Assembly: GCA_963749365.1 (NCBI GenBank)
Contig: CAVVME010000003.1
Location: forward strand, 718,603 to 782,602
From: an uncultured Solirubrobacterales bacterium
Lineage (GTDB): Bacteria > Actinomycetota > Thermoleophilia > Solirubrobacterales > 70-9
Reading direction: 5' to 3'
DNA length: 64,000 bases
Positions 20,079-24,796 of this stretch are shown one piece after another (position 1 is the stretch's first letter; each line of letters opens with the position of its first letter). A program made the position numbers and the translations under genes. The notes beneath the pieces are model-generated. The model saw only the letters and a program-made list of their open reading frames with translations. It was not told where the DNA came from and did no database searches.

Positions 20079-20429
20079 ATGCAGACCTGGGACATCTCCG
20101 CGCTCGACGTAGACCGACACCATCCCGAGGTGCTGAGCTCGGACGAGGAGGGCAGGGCGATCGTGCTCGAGCTGCCGGCGGGCGAGCGGCTGTCCGAGCA
20201 CCAGGTCCACGAACGCGCCTGGCTCGTCGTCGTCTCGGGTGCGGTCGAGATCACCGGGCCCGACGGCGAGGCCGTAAGCGGCGGGCCCGGCCTGCTCGCC
20301 ACCTTCAAGCCCAGCGAGCGCCACGAGGTCGCGGCGACCGCCGACGCCCGTCTCCTGCTCGTGCTCTCCCCCTGGCCCGGCGAGGGTCACCCGAGCAACG
20401 CCGCCAGGTTCGCGCCGAATCCCGGATAG
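20079..20429 (+). CDS. cupin domain protein
   Basis: ATG at 20079 within the 19974..20429 ORF; 116 aa. Cupin_2-like core (EHQVHERAWLVVVSGAVEI...FKPSERHEV) and strongly GC-rich third positions. The 3' end overlaps the aroA 3' end convergently by 43 nt. Confidence 0.65.
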   Translation: MQTWDISALDVDRHHPEVLSSDEEGRAIVLELPAGERLSEHQVHERAWLVVVSGAVEITGPDGEAVSGGPGLLATFKPSERHEVAATADARLLLVLSPWPGEGHPSNAARFAPNPG

Positions 20430-21760
20430 CTGATTGCGGCGGCCTCGAAGCCGGCCACCTCGACTCCCTCGTCCGACGCCAGGCCCGCGATCGCGCCGAG
20501 CATCGCCAGGCGATGATCTCCGGCCGCGTCGAGCACGCCGCCGCGCAGCCGGCCGGCGCCGGCAATCGTGAAGCCGTCAGGGGTCGCCTCGATCTCGGCG
20601 CCGAGACCGCGCAGGCCGCCGACCACGGTCGCGATCCGGTCCGATTCCTTGTGGCGCAGCTCCTCGGCGCCCGTGACCACCGTCTCGCCCTCGGCGAAGC
20701 AGGCGGTGAGCGCCACCAGGGGCAGCTCGTCGATCGCCAGCGGCACCTCGCCCGCCCCGACCCGCGTGCCCTGCAGCGGTCCCGAGCGGGCGACGATCGT
20801 CGCCATCGGCTCGCGCCCCGCCGCGGCTGTCTCGATCACCTCGACGGCGGCGCCCATCCTGGTCAGGATCCCGAGCAGCCCGATCCGGCCCGGATTGATC
20901 CCGACCCGCTCGATCCGGACGTTGCTGCCGGCGACGAGCAGCGCCCCGACGATCGGGAACGCGGCCGAGGAGAAGTCCCCCGGGACCACGATCGCCTCGG
21001 GCTCGAGTCGCCCCGCCGGCTCGACGGTGACCCGCTGCGCGGGCAGCTCGCCGCGGATCGTCACCGCGGTGCCGGCGTTCTCGGTCCGCAGCGTGGCGCC
21101 GGCGCCGCGCAGGATGCGCTCCGTGTGGTCGCGGGTCGGGCGCCGTTCGACCACGCTCGTCGGCCCGTCGGCGAGCAGGCCCGCGAGCAGCAGGCACGAC
21201 TTCACCTGGGCGCTGGCGACCGGAAGCCGGTACTCGATCCCGCGCAGGCGCGCCCCGCGGACCGTGACCGGGGCCAGGCGATCCTCGCGGGCGCTGAGCT
21301 CGGCGCCCATCAGCCGCAGTGGCTCGACCACCCGGTCGACCGGACGCCGGCGGATCGAGCGGTCACCGTCGAGCGTCCACTCACCGCCCGGCTGGCCGGC
21401 CAGCCAGCCCGGCAACAGACGCAACAGCGTGCCGGCGTTGCCGACGTCGATCGCCGCTGTCCTCGCCCCGCGCAGGCCGACGCCGCGGATCCGAAGCTCG
21501 AGCGCGCTCGACGCGTTGTTCGCGTCATCCGCGATCTTCGCGTCAACCGCCTCCGCCGCCGGTCTCTCATCGACCGTCGCCCCAAGCGCCCGCACCGCGG
21601 CGAGGGTCGAACGGGTGTCGGCCGCGTCGAGGTAGCCGTGGACGCTGGTCTCCCCCTCCCCGATCGCGGCGACGATCGCCGCCCGGTGGGAGATCGACTT
21701 GTCGGGCGGCGGCGCCAGCGACCCGCGCAGCGGCCCCGCGGCGCCGAAGCGGGCGCTCAT
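20387..21760 (-). CDS. aroA: 3-phosphoshikimate 1-carboxyvinyltransferase (EPSP synthase)
   Basis: 457 aa with the PPDKSISHRA motif and EPSP synthase architecture throughout. Confidence 0.92.
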   Translation of the reverse strand: MSARFGAAGPLRGSLAPPPDKSISHRAAIVAAIGEGETSVHGYLDAADTRSTLAAVRALGATVDERPAAEAVDAKIADDANNASSALELRIRGVGLRGARTAAIDVGNAGTLLRLLPGWLAGQPGGEWTLDGDRSIRRRPVDRVVEPLRLMGAELSAREDRLAPVTVRGARLRGIEYRLPVASAQVKSCLLLAGLLADGPTSVVERRPTRDHTERILRGAGATLRTENAGTAVTIRGELPAQRVTVEPAGRLEPEAIVVPGDFSSAAFPIVGALLVAGSNVRIERVGINPGRIGLLGILTRMGAAVEVIETAAAGREPMATIVARSGPLQGTRVGAGEVPLAIDELPLVALTACFAEGETVVTGAEELRHKESDRIATVVGGLRGLGAEIEATPDGFTIAGAGRLRGGVLDAAGDHRLAMLGAIAGLASDEGVEVAGFEAAAISYPGFGANLAALLG

Positions 21761-22851
21761 CGCTCGCCCGGCGTCACCAGAGCTGCGGTGTGGCCGAGCT
21801 CGCGCACCAGCTCGGCGGCCCGCTCGACCTCCTGCTCGCCCGCGATCCAGACCGAGATCGCTCCGGTGCGCATGTCGGGCGCCGGGTAGAGGGCCATGTC
21901 CTCGATATTGACCTGGGCGTGGCCGAGGGCGAGCGCGATCTCGGCGACGGTGCCGGGCCTGTTCTCGACTCCGATCCGCAGCTCGCGCAGGCCGCCGCCG
22001 ATCAGGTCCGCCTCGAGCAGCCGGCGCCGGGCGTCGGCGGCGTCTCGGTGCCAGCTCGCAACCGCGTCGAGGTCGCCGGCGCGGATCAGCCGCGCCGCCT
22101 CGCGCAGTCGCTCGCCGACGGCGTCGATCTCGCCAGCGACCGTTTCCGCGTTGGTGGCGAAGATGTCCGCCCAGATCGAAGGGTTCGCCCCGGCGACCCG
22201 GGTCGTGTCGCGAAAGCTGGTCCCGACCTCGGGCAGCCGCTCGGACTCCTCGCTGAGCGCGCCGGCGGCCTCCTGGACGAGCACGTTCGCGAGCACATGC
22301 GGAAGGTGGCTGACAGTGGCCATGACCCGGTCGTGAGTCTCGGCGTCGATCGCCTGCGGGCGGGCGCCGAGCTCGGAGATCGTGCGTTGCAGGCGGTCGT
22401 AGAGCAGGCCGCTGGCCGACTCGCCCGGGGTCAGGTACCAGCGCGCTCCCTCGAGTAGCTCCGCGCGGGCGTTCTCGACCCCGGAGGTCTCGGCGCCCGC
22501 GAGCGGATGACCGCCGATGAAGCGCTCGATCCCGGCGCGCGGCAGGCTCTCGATCAGCGCCCGTTTGGTCGAGCCGACGTCGGTGACGATCGCCCGCTCC
22601 CCGCTCGCCCCGAGCGCCGTGGCGACGAGCGCCGGCAGGGCGCGCACCGGCGCGGCGCAGAAGACGACCTCGGCCCCGGCGACCGCGTCGGCGACGGAGT
22701 CGGCGCCGGCGTCGAGCGCCTCGAGCTCGATCGCGCGGGCGAGGTTGGCGCGATCGGGATCGAAGCCGCTGACCTCGGCGCCGAGTCGCCGCCGCGCGGC
22801 GAGGCCGATCGAGCCGCCGATCAGGCCGACGCCGAGGACGGCGATCTTCAC
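21757..22851 (-). CDS. tyrA: prephenate dehydrogenase with C-terminal ACT domain
   Basis: ORF trimmed to the GTG (complement of 22849-22851), giving MKIAVLGVGLIGGSIG (Rossmann motif). ACT-like tail (IGVENRPGTVAEIALALGHAQVNIEDM). The start is uncertain by a few codons. 4-nt overlap with aroA. Confidence 0.85.
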   Translation of the reverse strand: MKIAVLGVGLIGGSIGLAARRRLGAEVSGFDPDRANLARAIELEALDAGADSVADAVAGAEVVFCAAPVRALPALVATALGASGERAIVTDVGSTKRALIESLPRAGIERFIGGHPLAGAETSGVENARAELLEGARWYLTPGESASGLLYDRLQRTISELGARPQAIDAETHDRVMATVSHLPHVLANVLVQEAAGALSEESERLPEVGTSFRDTTRVAGANPSIWADIFATNAETVAGEIDAVGERLREAARLIRAGDLDAVASWHRDAADARRRLLEADLIGGGLRELRIGVENRPGTVAEIALALGHAQVNIEDMALYPAPDMRTGAISVWIAGEQEVERAAELVRELGHTAALVTPGER

Positions 22852-22873
22852 CGTGACCGGAGCACCGGGCCGC

Positions 22874-23899
22874 TCAGACGGCCGTCGGCTGCTTGCCCGC
22901 GACCTCCGCTGCGCGCCTGACCTGCTCCGCATACTCGGCGAAGGTCTCGGTCGGCAGCGCCTGCGGCCCGTCGCAGATCGCCTCCTCGGGCTCGTTGTGG
23001 ACCTCGACCATGATCCCGTCGGCGCCCGCCGCCGCGGCCGCGAGCGACATCGGCGCGACCCAGTCGCGCCGACCGGCAGCGTGGCTCGGGTCGACGACGA
23101 TCGGCAGGTGGGTGAGCTCGCGCAAGGCCGGGATCGCGAGCAGGTCGAGGGTGAAGCGGTAGGTGGTCTCGAAGGTGCGGATCCCCCGCTCGCAGAGCAT
23201 CACGTTCGGGTTGCCCTCCTTGAGCACGTACTCGGACGCCATCAGCAGCTCGTCCAGGGTCGCCGAGAGCCCGCGCTTGAGCAGCACCGCCTTGCCGGTC
23301 CGCCCCGCCTCCGCCAGCAGGGTGTAGTTCTGCATGTTGCGGGCGCCGATCTGGATCACGTCGGCGACCTCGACCACGTCCTCGACGTCGCGCGCGTCCA
23401 TCAGCTCGGTGACCACCGGCAGGCCGGTCTGCTGCTTGGCCTCCTCGAGCAGCCGCAGGCCCTCGGCCCCGAGGCCCTGGAAGCTGTACGGGGAGGTGCG
23501 GGGCTTGTACGCGCCGCCGCGCAACATCGTCGCGCCGGCGTCGGCGACGACCTGGGCCACCTCGAGCGTCTGCTCGCGGCCCTCGACCGTGCACGGGCCG
23601 GCGATCAGGCCGAAGTGCTCGCCGCCGAGCCTGCGCCCGTCAATCTCGATCACCGTCCGCTCGCCCTTGCGGAACTGGGTCGAAGCGAGCTTGTAGGGCT
23701 TCAGGATCGGAACCAGGTGGTCGACCCCCGGCGCCCCCTCGAGCCCCAGCGAGGAGACCCGCTCGCGGTCTCCGATCGCCCCGATCACGGTCAGCAGATC
23801 ACCCTGCGAGACGTGCGCCGCGCAGCCGACCTCCTCAATGCGTTCGACGACGTGGGAGATCTGCTCCTCGGTCGCCCCCTCTTTCATCACGATCATCAT
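22874..23899 (-). CDS. aroF: 3-deoxy-7-phosphoheptulonate (DAHP) synthase, class I-beta, with N-terminal ferredoxin/ACT-like regulatory domain
   Basis: 341 aa. An N-terminal domain of about 70 aa ([25 protein letters not shown]...), then [10 protein letters not shown] and [11 protein letters not shown] motifs of the KDO8PS-like DAHPS family. Confidence 0.9.
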
Positions 23900-23948
23900 C
23901 TTGCGACTTGGCCTTTCGGTCTCAACACACGCGGATCAGTGGTGCTAC

Positions 23949-24004
23949 GGCGTCCGGCGGGGGGTTTCCTTCTCGCTCACGGGCCTCGCGGCCGGCCGGA
24001 CGCC
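23949..24004 (-). promoter_or_regulatory. perfect 10-bp stem (GGCGTCCGGC / GCCGGACGCC) with 36-nt loop, starting at the last base of the leader-ORF stop codon; candidate attenuator/terminator element in the aroF leader
   Basis: Read directly. On the minus strand the sequence is ...AGC TAG|GCGTCCGGC-36 nt-GCCGGACGCC, then about 49 nt to the aroF ATG. There is no U-tract after it (GTAGCACC...GTGTGTT). Confidence 0.4.
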
Positions 24005-24093
24005 TAGCTAAATCGCCAGTAGTAGGTAAACCACGCGCACGGCTGCGGACCCTTGCGGGCGCTCAAAGCAGCGGTCGCGAGCTCGCGGTTCAC
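24004..24093 (-). CDS. putative aromatic-rich leader peptide upstream of aroF (29 aa from GTG 24093, or 20 aa from TTG 24066)
   Basis: This is the tail of the 24004..24312 ORF: (M)NRELATAALSARKGPQPCAWFTYYWRFS*. Six of the last nine codons are Trp/Phe/Tyr (TGG TTT ACC TAC TAC TGG CGA TTT). TTT is used although genes here nearly always use TTC. The stop abuts the 10-bp stem. Confidence 0.4.
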   Translation of the reverse strand: MNRELATAALSARKGPQPCAWFTYYWRFS

Positions 24094-24100
24094 GCCGAAG

Positions 24101-24129
24101 GTTTTACCACGGAGCCCCCGAAAGCGCAA
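24101..24129 (-). promoter_or_regulatory. candidate promoter for the leader ORF: -35 TTGCGC (24124-24129), 17-nt spacer, extended -10 TGgTAAAAC (24101-24109), 7 nt before GTG 24093
   Basis: Read by eye on the minus strand. The geometry would make the leader ORF leaderless. Both hexamers are imperfect. Confidence 0.25.
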
Positions 24130-24160
24130 ACTCCGCCCACGATCCGGGTAGATTCGGCCG

Positions 24161-24796
24161 ATGCTCGCGACCGCCCTCGCAATCGCCGCCGGGACGCTCG
24201 CCGGCGCCGGAGAGCCGTCGTTCGACGGCCATTCGGAGCCGATCCGCGGCCGCATCGAGGAGCGGGTCGTGGGCAGCTCCTGGCATCGCGGCTGCCCGGT
24301 CGGGCTGGGCAAGCTGCGCCTGCTCGAGCTCGATCACTGGGGCTTCGACGGTGACCCGCACCGCGGGCGGCTGATCGTCCACCGAAGCCAGGACCGCCAG
24401 GTGCTGGCGGCGATGAAGCGGCTGTTCCGGATCGAGTACCCGATCCGGCGCATGGAGCTGATCGACCGCTACGGCGCCGACGATCAGCGCTCGATGAACG
24501 CCGACAACACCTCGGCCTTCAACTGCCGCTTCGTCGCCGGGACCCAGCGCTGGTCGATGCACGCATACGGGCGGGCGATCGACATCAACCCGATCGAGAA
24601 CCCGTACGTTTCGGGCTCCCACGTCTCGCCATCCGCCGGCGCCCCGTTCGCCGACCGATCCCGCGACGCCGAGGGAATGATCCACGCGGGCGACGCGGTC
24701 GTGCGCGCGTTCGCCCGCCGCGCCGGCTGGCAGTGGGGCGGCTCCTGGCCCGGCGGCACCCGCGACTACCAGCACTTCTCGAGCAACGGGCAGTAG
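24161..24796 (+). CDS. M15-family zinc D-Ala-D-Ala carboxypeptidase-like peptidase (secreted)
   Basis: 211 aa. Signal-like N-terminus, metal/catalytic motifs SMHAYGRAIDINP and DYQHF. A TAGATT hexamer (24149-24154) lies 6 nt upstream of the ATG, and there is no SD. Confidence 0.8.
   Translation: MLATALAIAAGTLAGAGEPSFDGHSEPIRGRIEERVVGSSWHRGCPVGLGKLRLLELDHWGFDGDPHRGRLIVHRSQDRQVLAAMKRLFRIEYPIRRMELIDRYGADDQRSMNADNTSAFNCRFVAGTQRWSMHAYGRAIDINPIENPYVSGSHVSPSAGAPFADRSRDAEGMIHAGDAVVRAFARRAGWQWGGSWPGGTRDYQHFSSNGQ

Follow-up and report, generated by a model that had tools for sequence, protein, structure and literature searches.

A short, probably translated leader open reading frame (ORF) rich in aromatic codons appears to control DAHP (3-deoxy-D-arabino-heptulosonate 7-phosphate) synthase in an uncultured Solirubrobacterales bacterium and in a large family of its relatives. 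The leader lies upstream of aroF in a 64,000-nt stretch of contig CAVVME010000003.1 (the window), where the 261-nt spacer at 23900-24160 forms the divergent promoter region between a Peptidase_M15_4 gene and aroF. In our view, it is best explained as a ribosome-mediated sensor of aromatic aminoacyl-tRNA supply, which would control DAHP synthase in cis and, in this organism, tyrA and aroA as well; we assign this explanation a probability of about 0.75. The identity of the sensor as a translated aromatic leader ORF regulating DAHP synthase is highly probable given the comparative evidence presented below.

Clustered Trp, Phe, and Tyr codons in the aroF leader

On the minus strand, the leader ORF ends with the codons TGG (24033-31), TTT (24030-28), ACC, TAC (24024-22), TAC (24021-19), TGG (24018-16), CGA, TTT (24012-10), and AGC, followed by the stop codon TAG (24006-04), which places Trp, Phe, and Tyr twice each within the last ten sense codons (six of the last eight are aromatic). 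Among the 117,187 stop-free 8-codon windows found in the six frames of the 64 kb, the resulting WFTYYWRF is the sole instance containing six aromatic residues, and the only three with five aromatic residues each overlap it. A chance origin of the cluster is excluded. The leader frame remains open for 102 codons upstream merely because of the high GC content (72.7% in the window). A previous inspection of the DNA (hereafter, the sequence-only reading) had proposed a candidate attenuator at this site, and its coordinates for the upstream ORF (uORF), the codons, the stem, and the starts were all correct in the minus-strand sequence. Its remarks upon the rarity of TTT in the surrounding genes and the locally AT-richer spacer were equally accurate, as both leader Phe codons are TTT, whereas aroF-tyrA-aroA use TTT once versus TTC 17 times, and the GC content is 0.61-0.68 in the spacer versus 0.70-0.76 in its flanks. 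The predicted fold stability of the spacer (221 nt) is ordinary (z = -0.42).

A family of leaders associated with DAHP synthase genes

Relatives of the window leader were collected from both genomes and metagenomes. A protein-guided AroF scan, limited to one genome per species, yielded 80 aroF loci with 55-87% AroF identity (81 including the window), nearly all of which come from metagenome-assembled genomes (MAGs) labelled Solirubrobacterales, Solirubrobacteraceae, or Thermoleophilia. In soil-metagenome contigs, an exact search with the 18-mer spanning the leader stop codon matched at least 120 contigs. Combined, the genome loci and metagenome contigs provide at least 177 distinct leaders, and the family-wide percentages given here refer to the leaders listed. 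Conservation of an aromatic uORF with a stem upstream of aroF orthologs had been set beforehand as a check on the sequence-only reading, and 62 of 81 aroF loci, window included, indeed combine such a uORF, no more than 400 nt upstream, with the stop-codon motif and the stem. In these 62 loci, the end of the uORF is rich in aromatic residues and closes with W-R-F-(S/I/T)-stop, and AroF identity to the window among leader-bearing loci is roughly 59-87%. The shared layout consists of a TGnTAcAAn box, an in-frame ATG/GTG, an 11-47-codon ORF with an aromatic end, the 18-mer, and the stem.

The aromatic enrichment is a feature of the codons themselves. Counted back from the stop codon in at least 177 leaders, the aromatic fraction per codon is no more than 3% at positions -20 to -16 and reaches up to 57% at -6; Trp occupies -4 in 98% of the leaders, Phe occupies -2 in 100%, and at least one Tyr is present in 98%. 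Since both the positions and the nucleotides of the upstream aromatic codons vary, these are selected as codons. Rare synonyms are also in excess by approximately 10-fold, with TAT comprising 41% of leader Tyr codons versus 3.0% in the adjacent aroF coding sequences and TTT comprising 21% of leader Phe codons versus 2.4%. The predicted sensing of Trp, Phe, and Tyr by one leader, which the sequence-only reading had suggested for the window, is a property of the family as a whole.

The gene located behind the exact 18-mer is always a DAHP synthase gene, wherever it is readable among the metagenome matches listed. Among these same matches, the class I-beta start ATGATGATCGTG is found downstream in about two-thirds of the contigs long enough to judge. 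The remaining contigs encode either I-beta enzymes with a variant start context (e.g. L148, L150, and L174), I-beta enzymes lacking the ferredoxin-like domain (L086, L099, L169, L171, and L191), or class I-alpha enzymes of the AroF/G/H type (TIGR00034; L085, L090-L092, L096-L098, L100, L106, L108, L109, L121, L124, L131, L135, L139, L140, L142, L146, L152, L153, L162-L164, L167, L180, L181, L190, L193, L197, and L199). The I-alpha leaders have the same TGnTACAA box, a GTG/ATG 7-10 nt further on, an aromatic-rich end, the exact 18-mer, and the stem. As the leader precedes three kinds of DAHP synthase, including the distant I-alpha type, the module tracks the enzymatic step rather than one gene lineage. 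This association is the strongest comparative argument for the putative regulation of DAHP synthase expression.

Several I-alpha genes behind the leader (L100, L106, L135, L139, L140, and L167) start with MMIGMK, MFIGM, or MIIGM (ATGATGATCGGGATG), resembling the I-beta start MMIVMK (ATGATGATCGTGATG, window 23885-23899), the N-termini being otherwise unrelated. It may be that these codons moved together with the leader, or else the similarity may be coincidental. Among the loci lacking the leader, aroF itself looks leaderless in L060, L062, L063, L070, and L078, with no Shine-Dalgarno sequence and a TAnnnT approximately 10 nt before its ATG, and in L066, L079, and L080 it starts a few bases past the stop codon of the upstream gene. 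L055 carries a decayed leader ~150-190 nt upstream of aroF, in which TACATT precedes an ATG ORF ending in ...YLRWRF, followed by TGGCGATTT and then CCCCGGGTGCTCGGG; the stop codon is missing and the stem differs. Two Solirubrobacterales-like aroF genes, L032 and L058 (73% and 62% identity, respectively), were found in MAGs labelled 'Chlamydiae bacterium' and 'Bifidobacterium breve', and L032 has a typical leader; both contigs are probably mis-binned.

Putative promoter box, start codon, and reading frame

The window sequence contains no Shine-Dalgarno sequence before GTG 24093 and instead has a -10-like box 7 nt upstream, both of which the sequence-only reading had pointed out as fitting a leaderless arrangement. 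The family is in agreement with this suggestion. A TGnTAcAAn box (resembling TGCTACAAA) is located upstream in 154 of the 174 distinct leaders listed, and its distance to the ATG/GTG varies from 3 to 17 nt, with 7-10 nt being the commonest; the longer spacers often contain AGGA/GGAG. A spacing of 7-10 nt fits a leaderless or near-leaderless mRNA, and the box probably serves as a promoter. A sigma-70 consensus scan of 23500-24600 returned no match, a result that is uninformative for the leader promoter. When the first ATG/GTG located 3-19 nt beyond the box is taken as the start, 144 of 150 leaders listed have it in frame with the WRFx stop, versus a chance expectation of one third, and this frame is kept although ORF length ranges from 11 to 47 codons. 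Conservation of the frame is strong, albeit indirect, support for the prediction that ribosomes read the uORF.

A second -10-like element, TAnnnT, occurs once per locus, 30-40 nt before the DAHP synthase start, in 33 of 58 leader-bearing loci (L004, L008-L014, L016, L022-L025, L029, L030, L033-L035, L038-L043, L045, L048, L050, L052, L053, L056, L057, L065, and L071), compared to a background expectation of ~2% per locus. Its forms include TAAGAT, TAACAT, TAGGAT, TACGAT, and others, often followed by TCCCAGGC, and it appears as GAAAGTAnnnT in the I-alpha leaders. The element is absent from the window at 23900-23948. In one I-alpha clade, RNAalifold pairs it with Tyr-Phe codons (CCUAUUU:AAGUAGG), and the family-wide signal between the element and the aromatic tract is weak (z = -2.4). 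Because its middle bases vary, a -10 box is preferred over an RNA partner of the tract, and the element is probably a gene-proximal promoter.

An invariant motif at the stop codon

The most conserved portion of the leader surrounds its stop codon, with the family form TGG CGA TTT AnC TAG GCG. Among the leaders retrieved through the AroF protein, CGATTT, TAG, and GGCG are identical in 62 of 62, synonymous sites included. TGG is replaced in four of these leaders, while none of them has a synonym in place of the rare CGA and TTT codons or of the TAG stop; thus, the motif is conserved as nucleotides and not only as a peptide. It is single-copy, occurring once in the 64-kb window with up to three mismatches allowed and once per 7-kb locus. 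Its GAUUUA segment is predicted to be unpaired (pairing probability 0.17-0.41).

A cis partner for the motif was sought in pairing tests against the aroF start, the interior of the stem, and the downstream leader, and none was found. RNAalifold had suggested a GCGAUU:GAUCGU pairing between the motif and the aroF start, which was rejected because it is no better than that of permuted motifs (p = 0.10); it is further ruled out, as ATGATGATCGTG also starts aroF in loci that lack the leader and the motif is the same before I-alpha starts. Pairing with the stem loop or the downstream leader was rejected family-wide, since the real motif binds less well than permuted versions. The energy model also offered a mini-hairpin of UGGC/GCUA with a GAUUUA loop, which is unsupported, as natural variation always breaks it and never compensates. 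Programmed frameshifting at A-UUU-A was likewise dropped from sequence considerations, there being no slippery heptamer and no conserved alternative frame. Within the sub-clade of the window, the GCUAGG of the motif is perfectly complementary to a CCUAGC in the stem loop (L002, L107, L128, and L196), and the other members have UAGC directly after the 3' arm of the stem (window 23947-23944, L005, L006, L168, and L177). This either-or pattern of CCUAGC and UAGC belongs to the sub-clade only and is not shared by the whole family.

A covarying stem adjoins the stop codon

The stem, which we designate P1, begins with the G of the stop codon. In the window, it encloses a small hairpin, GGCC-GCGA-GGCC (23993-23982), plus a purine-rich linker, and the motif together with the P1 domain folds to -34.4 kcal/mol (z = -2.26 versus shuffles). 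P1 is found in 62 of 62 leaders, with 94.3% of the arm-alignment cells paired versus 34-48% when the 3' arm is slid. The covariation that the sequence-only reading had called for is present: 35 cells are changed on both sides of the stem in the 62 leaders, a number reached by 0 of 500 shuffles, and pairs 5 and 6 alternate between C:G/U:A and U:A/C:G. Between the P1 arms, the length ranges from ~17 to 100 nt and no core is conserved, so the domain is not aptamer-like.

The sequence between P1 and the gene is clade-specific and 43-211 nt in length. In the window, 49 nt separate the P1 3' arm from aroF; this segment includes the Shine-Dalgarno-like GAAAGG and has no obvious hairpin. The GAAAGG(A) is kept in most leader-bearing loci. 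A consensus scan detected no terminator-like hairpin with a T-run on either strand of 23500-24600, and T-runs after P1 are missing in the window and sporadic in the relatives. An alternative partner for either P1 arm, as in a terminator/antiterminator arrangement, was rejected since cis and trans energies are equal, in a comparison of low power given that the arms are nearly invariant.

Co-evolution and predicted pairings of the aromatic tract

Since the leaders are not alignable end to end, co-evolution was assessed from duplex energies, comparing defined segments that come from one leader (cis) with the same segments taken from different leaders (trans). For the initial 14 nt of the uORF, start codon included, against the 30 nt before the motif, the energy is -11.25 kcal/mol in cis versus -9.60 kcal/mol in trans (z = -8.2), and a separate test of the start region against the tract gave z = -4.3. 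The 5' end of the message is accordingly modeled as pairing with the aromatic tract in a helix that we term H0, exemplified by GUGAGGU/ACCUCAC and GUGAAGCG/CGCUUC in two I-alpha clades. The tract also co-evolves with its own Shine-Dalgarno region (z = -3.5; z = -4.6 with 114 leaders; z = -2.1, p = 0.019 with 40 de-replicated leaders), whereas ten control segment pairs exhibited no significant co-evolution by the same comparison. Strong single cases are CUUCUCCUA/UAGGAGAAG in L012 and GUCGUCCU/AGGAUGAC in L016, and in the window GCGCG-UGGUUU can pair with AGGCCAAGUCGC at a predicted -11.4 to -12.0 kcal/mol. The alternative pairing envisioned by the sequence-only reading, TGGTTTACC with GGAAACC, is not conserved, and the tract and the interior of the stem-loop show no co-evolution (z = +2.0).

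Table 1. Features of the aroF leader and its neighboring genes in the window.
Feature	Position	Strand	Basis or remark
Extended -10-like box TGGTAAAAC, putative leader promoter	24109-24101	minus	Sequence; 7 nt from hexamer to GTG
Leader ORF VNRELATAALSARKGPQPCAWFTYYWRFS, then stop	24093-24004	minus	GTG + 28 codons + TAG
Predicted H0 5' strand GUGAACCGCG, start codon region	24093-24084	minus	Minimum free energy fold; RNAalifold on closest relatives
Predicted H0 3' strand CGCGUGGUUUAC, in aromatic tract	24037-24026	minus	Minimum free energy fold; RNAalifold on closest relatives
Aromatic codon tract W F T Y Y W R F	24037-24010	minus	Includes H0 3' strand
18-mer TGG CGA TTT AGC TAG GCG	24018-24001	minus	Last four sense codons + stop + first P1 bases
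P1 domain	24004-23949	minus	10-bp stem, 36 nt between arms
P1 5' arm GGCGTCCGGC (written GGCGUCCGGC)	24004-23995	minus	Perfect pairing with 3' arm
P1 3' arm GCCGGACGCC	23958-23949	minus	Perfect pairing with 5' arm
Shine-Dalgarno-like GAAAGG of aroF	23917-23912	minus	12 nt before ATG
aroF, class I-beta DAHP synthase, N-terminal ferredoxin-like regulatory domain	22874-23899, ATG 23899	minus	Pfam DAHP_synth_1 + DAHP_snth_FXD; NCBIfam NF006421, TIGR01361
tyrA, prephenate dehydrogenase + ACT domain	21757-22932 (longest ORF)	minus	ORF list, Pfam
aroA, EPSP (5-enolpyruvylshikimate 3-phosphate) synthase	20387-21760	minus	ORF list, Pfam
Upstream divergent gene, Peptidase_M15_4	ATG 24161	plus	Pfam

Genomic context

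Judging only by their spacing, tyrA and aroA are probably the distal genes of an aroF operon (Table 1). The longest tyrA ORF runs 59 nt into the 3' end of aroF, and the true tyrA start is therefore likely to lie at a later codon. A 4-nt overlap between the aroA ORF and the tyrA stop points to translational coupling, and cmk is located on the same strand 79 nt after aroA. In many relatives (L014, L015, L018, L027, L047 [1634-2713], L048, L065, and others), a co-directional class I/II aminotransferase gene (HisC-like; Pfam Aminotran_1_2) lies upstream of the leader, its stop codon being a few bases before the leader -10 box, where the window has the divergent M15 peptidase gene instead.

Discussion

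From these features, we infer a transcription start, translation of the ORF, ribosome stalling, and both the direction and level of regulation, as follows. The mRNA would begin at or next to GTG 24093, with transcription starting ~7 nt after TGGTAAAAC, and its free 5' end would be loaded by a 70S ribosome that translates the 29 codons. When Trp-, Phe-, or Tyr-tRNA is scarce, the ribosome would stall on the tract (24033-24010) and cover it while P1 stays intact, which would block pairing of the tract with both the start region (H0) and the aroF ribosome-binding region, such that aroF translation is favored. When charged tRNAs are plentiful, the ribosome would reach UAG 24006-24004, with P1 necessarily melted, and after its release at UAG the tract would re-pair and aroF expression would be low. 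The geometry of the leader can be considered using an assumed ribosome footprint of ~13 nt protected beyond the first base of the A-site codon. P1 begins 14 nt downstream of the near-invariant UGG, which is one such footprint, and hence a stall at or before UGG should leave P1 intact, while P1 would have to melt before CGA, UUU, AnC, and the stop could be decoded. The sequence-only reading had supposed that a ribosome paused on the aromatic codons would occlude the 5' arm, whereas under the assumed footprint only a ribosome with its A site at CGA/UUU or beyond reaches that arm. As for its broader proposal of an attenuator, the conserved aromatic leader, the frame, and the covarying stem have been upheld, but not the terminator/antiterminator sense of the term, as no terminator-like site was found. 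We would tentatively favor an output via translation or RNA structure, similar to the mycobacterial polyCys leaders, rather than via a terminator, at somewhat less than even odds.

Several results weigh against this sensor model. In the relatives that carry it, the second TAnnnT element could express DAHP synthase independently of the leader. Co-evolution between the tract and the Shine-Dalgarno region is small (~1 kcal/mol) and, at p = 0.019 after de-replication, supports the proposed pairing weakly. Equilibrium modeling of the aroF initiation region revealed no consistent change in opening energy across the ribosome states in the family mean, which was 6.6 kcal/mol for ribosome-free leaders, 6.7 kcal/mol for a ribosome on the stop codon, and 6.4 kcal/mol for a stalled ribosome (not significant); the corresponding values for the window were 6.8, 8.2, and 7.4, and an initiating ribosome differed only weakly from a stalled one (+0.66 kcal/mol, p = 0.023). 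Furthermore, a structured P1 domain and 43-211 nt separate the tract from the Shine-Dalgarno region, unlike in the mycobacterial polyCys case. Lastly, the model gives the invariant CGAUUU-AnC-UAG no role. The motif might be read by the ribosome as it terminates, by an RNase, by Rho, or by a binding protein. A rather unlikely, but conceivable scenario is that the unpaired motif is itself the actual switch, being read by a trans-acting factor or the terminating ribosome with its exposure gated by ribosome position, or else that the released leader RNA acts in trans. If the motif is the switch, a terminator-free form of attenuation would be common to three DAHP synthase kinds across an actinobacterial class.

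Two other explanations retain a role for the translating ribosome, yet place the output elsewhere. In transcription attenuation of the trp/phe type, a ribosome on UAG would hold the P1 5' arm and the freed 3' arm would nucleate a terminator or release of RNA polymerase before aroF. The stop codon does adjoin the stem as it does in trpL, P1 lies one assumed footprint after UGG, and H0 would hide the start codon once the tract is transcribed, which would limit sensing to a co-transcriptional pioneer ribosome; the aroR-aroF system of Corynebacterium glutamicum is also described as acting on transcription. We nonetheless regard this explanation as unlikely, given that 23500-24600 contains no terminator-like hairpin with a T-run, neither P1 arm has a detected alternative partner, and the P1-gene region of 43-211 nt is unconserved across clades with sporadic T-runs, comprising in the window 49 nt devoid of an obvious hairpin. 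The alternative of ribosome-gated access for a trans-acting factor holds that the motif between H0 and P1 is where RNase E/J, Rho, or some RNA-binding protein enters or recognizes the RNA, and that a ribosome stalled on the final aromatic codons would mask it, so that starvation stabilizes or extends the transcript. This would account for the invariance of the synonymous sites (CGA, TTT, and TAG) in the 62 protein-retrieved leaders, the predicted unpaired state of GAUUUA and the lower complementarity of the motif to the rest of the leader relative to permuted versions, and the identity of the motif before I-alpha and I-beta genes having different initiation regions. It would need neither a terminator nor Shine-Dalgarno pairing and would tolerate a second basal promoter, and the sole C of the unpaired stretch comes right after its only variable base. 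However, the motif is not C-rich, unlike rut (Rho utilization) sites, mycobacterial RNase E prefers C-rich contexts, and fifteen invariant bases exceed what known RNase or Rho signals require, all of which renders this explanation doubtful.

The remaining two explanations carry the least weight. Nascent-peptide arrest at the stop, similar to TnaC or SpeFL, would have W-R-F-x with UAG in the A site stall upon a free aromatic amino acid or another ligand; the peptide has an invariant R and F and, in 98% of the leaders, W, no stop other than the release factor 1 (RF1)-specific UAG is used, and during termination the strong P1 stem would occupy the mRNA entry channel. Such regulation would run the wrong way for a biosynthetic gene, as a ligand-induced stall would have to repress, the peptide alone cannot explain the invariant synonymous positions, and the variable upstream W/F/Y enrichment with rare codons is the signature of hungry-codon sensing. 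We therefore view arrest as very unlikely. Even less credence can be given to an untranslated feature, i.e. a structured noncoding RNA (riboswitch or small RNA) or a protein operator in which the ORF is incidental at high GC, which we consider highly improbable. A 102-codon open frame does arise simply from GC content, the most conserved part of the leader is conserved at the nucleotide rather than the peptide level, and attenuator-derived RNAs can act in trans in other bacteria (PMC6614838). Conversely, the start is in frame in 144 of 150 leaders listed despite length variation, the aromatic enrichment is one of codons, whose positions and nucleotides vary, and the P1 interior of 17 to ~100 nt has no conserved core, unlike an aptamer. 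There is also no relevant Rfam match at E <= 10: an Rfam 15 cmscan of 23600-24500 at this threshold returned four chance-level matches (E 1.6-7.5), far below gathering scores, and the only minus-strand match near the leader was whalefall-1 (24101-24151; 12.5 bits versus a gathering score of 37 bits), located upstream of the uORF and off both the motif and P1.

DAHP synthase is the entry to the shikimate pathway, and its known controls comprise allosteric feedback, TyrR/TrpR-type repressors, T-boxes, and the aroR leader in one genus. The preferred reading of the leader as a sensor of aromatic aminoacyl-tRNA supply would add to these a large family, with at least 177 distinct leaders in abundant soil Thermoleophilia, in which a single leader peptide reads Trp, Phe, and Tyr together. 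It would be a natural case of one uORF, probably leaderless, that senses several amino acids in high-GC bacteria lacking canonical terminators. The 15-18 invariant nucleotides at the stop provide a defined target for understanding how ribosome position might set expression without a terminator. The leader is likewise a candidate RNA family for the databases and for annotation of the Thermoleophilia, whose genomes are almost all MAGs. A full-text literature search covering RNA motifs of Thermoleophilia or Solirubrobacter, as well as leaderless small ORFs (sORFs) of the aromatic type, found no description of such a leader, which is not proof of absence.

Relationship to known leader peptides

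The classical trpL and pheL leaders consist of a short ORF having tandem regulatory codons near its end and a stop codon beside a stem, through which the supply of charged tRNA controls a biosynthetic operon. The Thermoleophilia leaders resemble them in the location of the regulatory codons near the ORF end, the stop codon adjoining a stem, and the biosynthetic nature of the operon. Unlike trpL and pheL, they lack both a 2:3/3:4 set of alternative pairings and a hairpin followed by a U-tract, their regulatory codons are situated in the 3' strand of the first predicted helix, three amino acids are represented in one leader, and they are probably leaderless.

The sequence-only reading had mentioned an aromatic leader upstream of aroF in Corynebacterium; such a leader is real and offers the nearest functional precedent. 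C. glutamicum aroR is described as a Phe-Tyr-Phe leader upstream of aroF, with stalled ribosomes raising operon expression when Phe is limiting (PMC11802643, PMC4046766). It was first noted in PMC4046766, is attributed to Neshat et al. 2014 as cited in PMC11802643 and PMC7356990, and is reported to be unresponsive to Tyr. As described, aroR shares with the present family a short aromatic-codon leader ORF immediately upstream of an actinobacterial DAHP synthase gene. On the other hand, aroR encodes no Trp by that description, while Trp, Phe, and Tyr are encoded by ~98% of the family, which also differs from the described aroR in its invariant motif, its covarying stem at the stop, its probably leaderless mRNA, its lack of a recognizable terminator, and its occurrence before three DAHP synthase kinds. 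The lineages are distant as well, aroR belonging to the Corynebacteriales and the family to the Thermoleophilia. The ilvB-II motif of Corynebacterium, a conserved uORF in the ilvBNC mRNA (PMC10272879), provides a further parallel, as this conserved 5' leader of an actinobacterium might be mistaken for a structured noncoding RNA and yet is described as a regulatory uORF; the pathway and the sequence are both different.

The output favored here mirrors that of the mycobacterial polyCys leaderless sORFs, the 'Cys ribulon' of Canestrari et al., which are translational attenuators with no terminator (bioRxiv 10.1101/834739). Pairing between their Cys codon tract and the downstream Shine-Dalgarno sequence was shown by compensatory mutations, and a stalled ribosome frees the Shine-Dalgarno sequence (bioRxiv 10.1101/834739). 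Like the polyCys sORFs, the aromatic leaders are first in their operons, probably leaderless, and carry the regulatory tract at the 3' end of the sORF, with the tract and the Shine-Dalgarno region exhibiting co-evolution. They are distinguished by different amino acids, by the intervening P1 and 43-211 nt, and by support for the pairing that is statistical and weak, while the predicted H0 helix and the invariant stop-codon motif have no described counterpart in the polyCys sORFs. Considered together with these systems, the aroF leader is very likely a known kind of sensor, the leader peptide, in an undescribed form.

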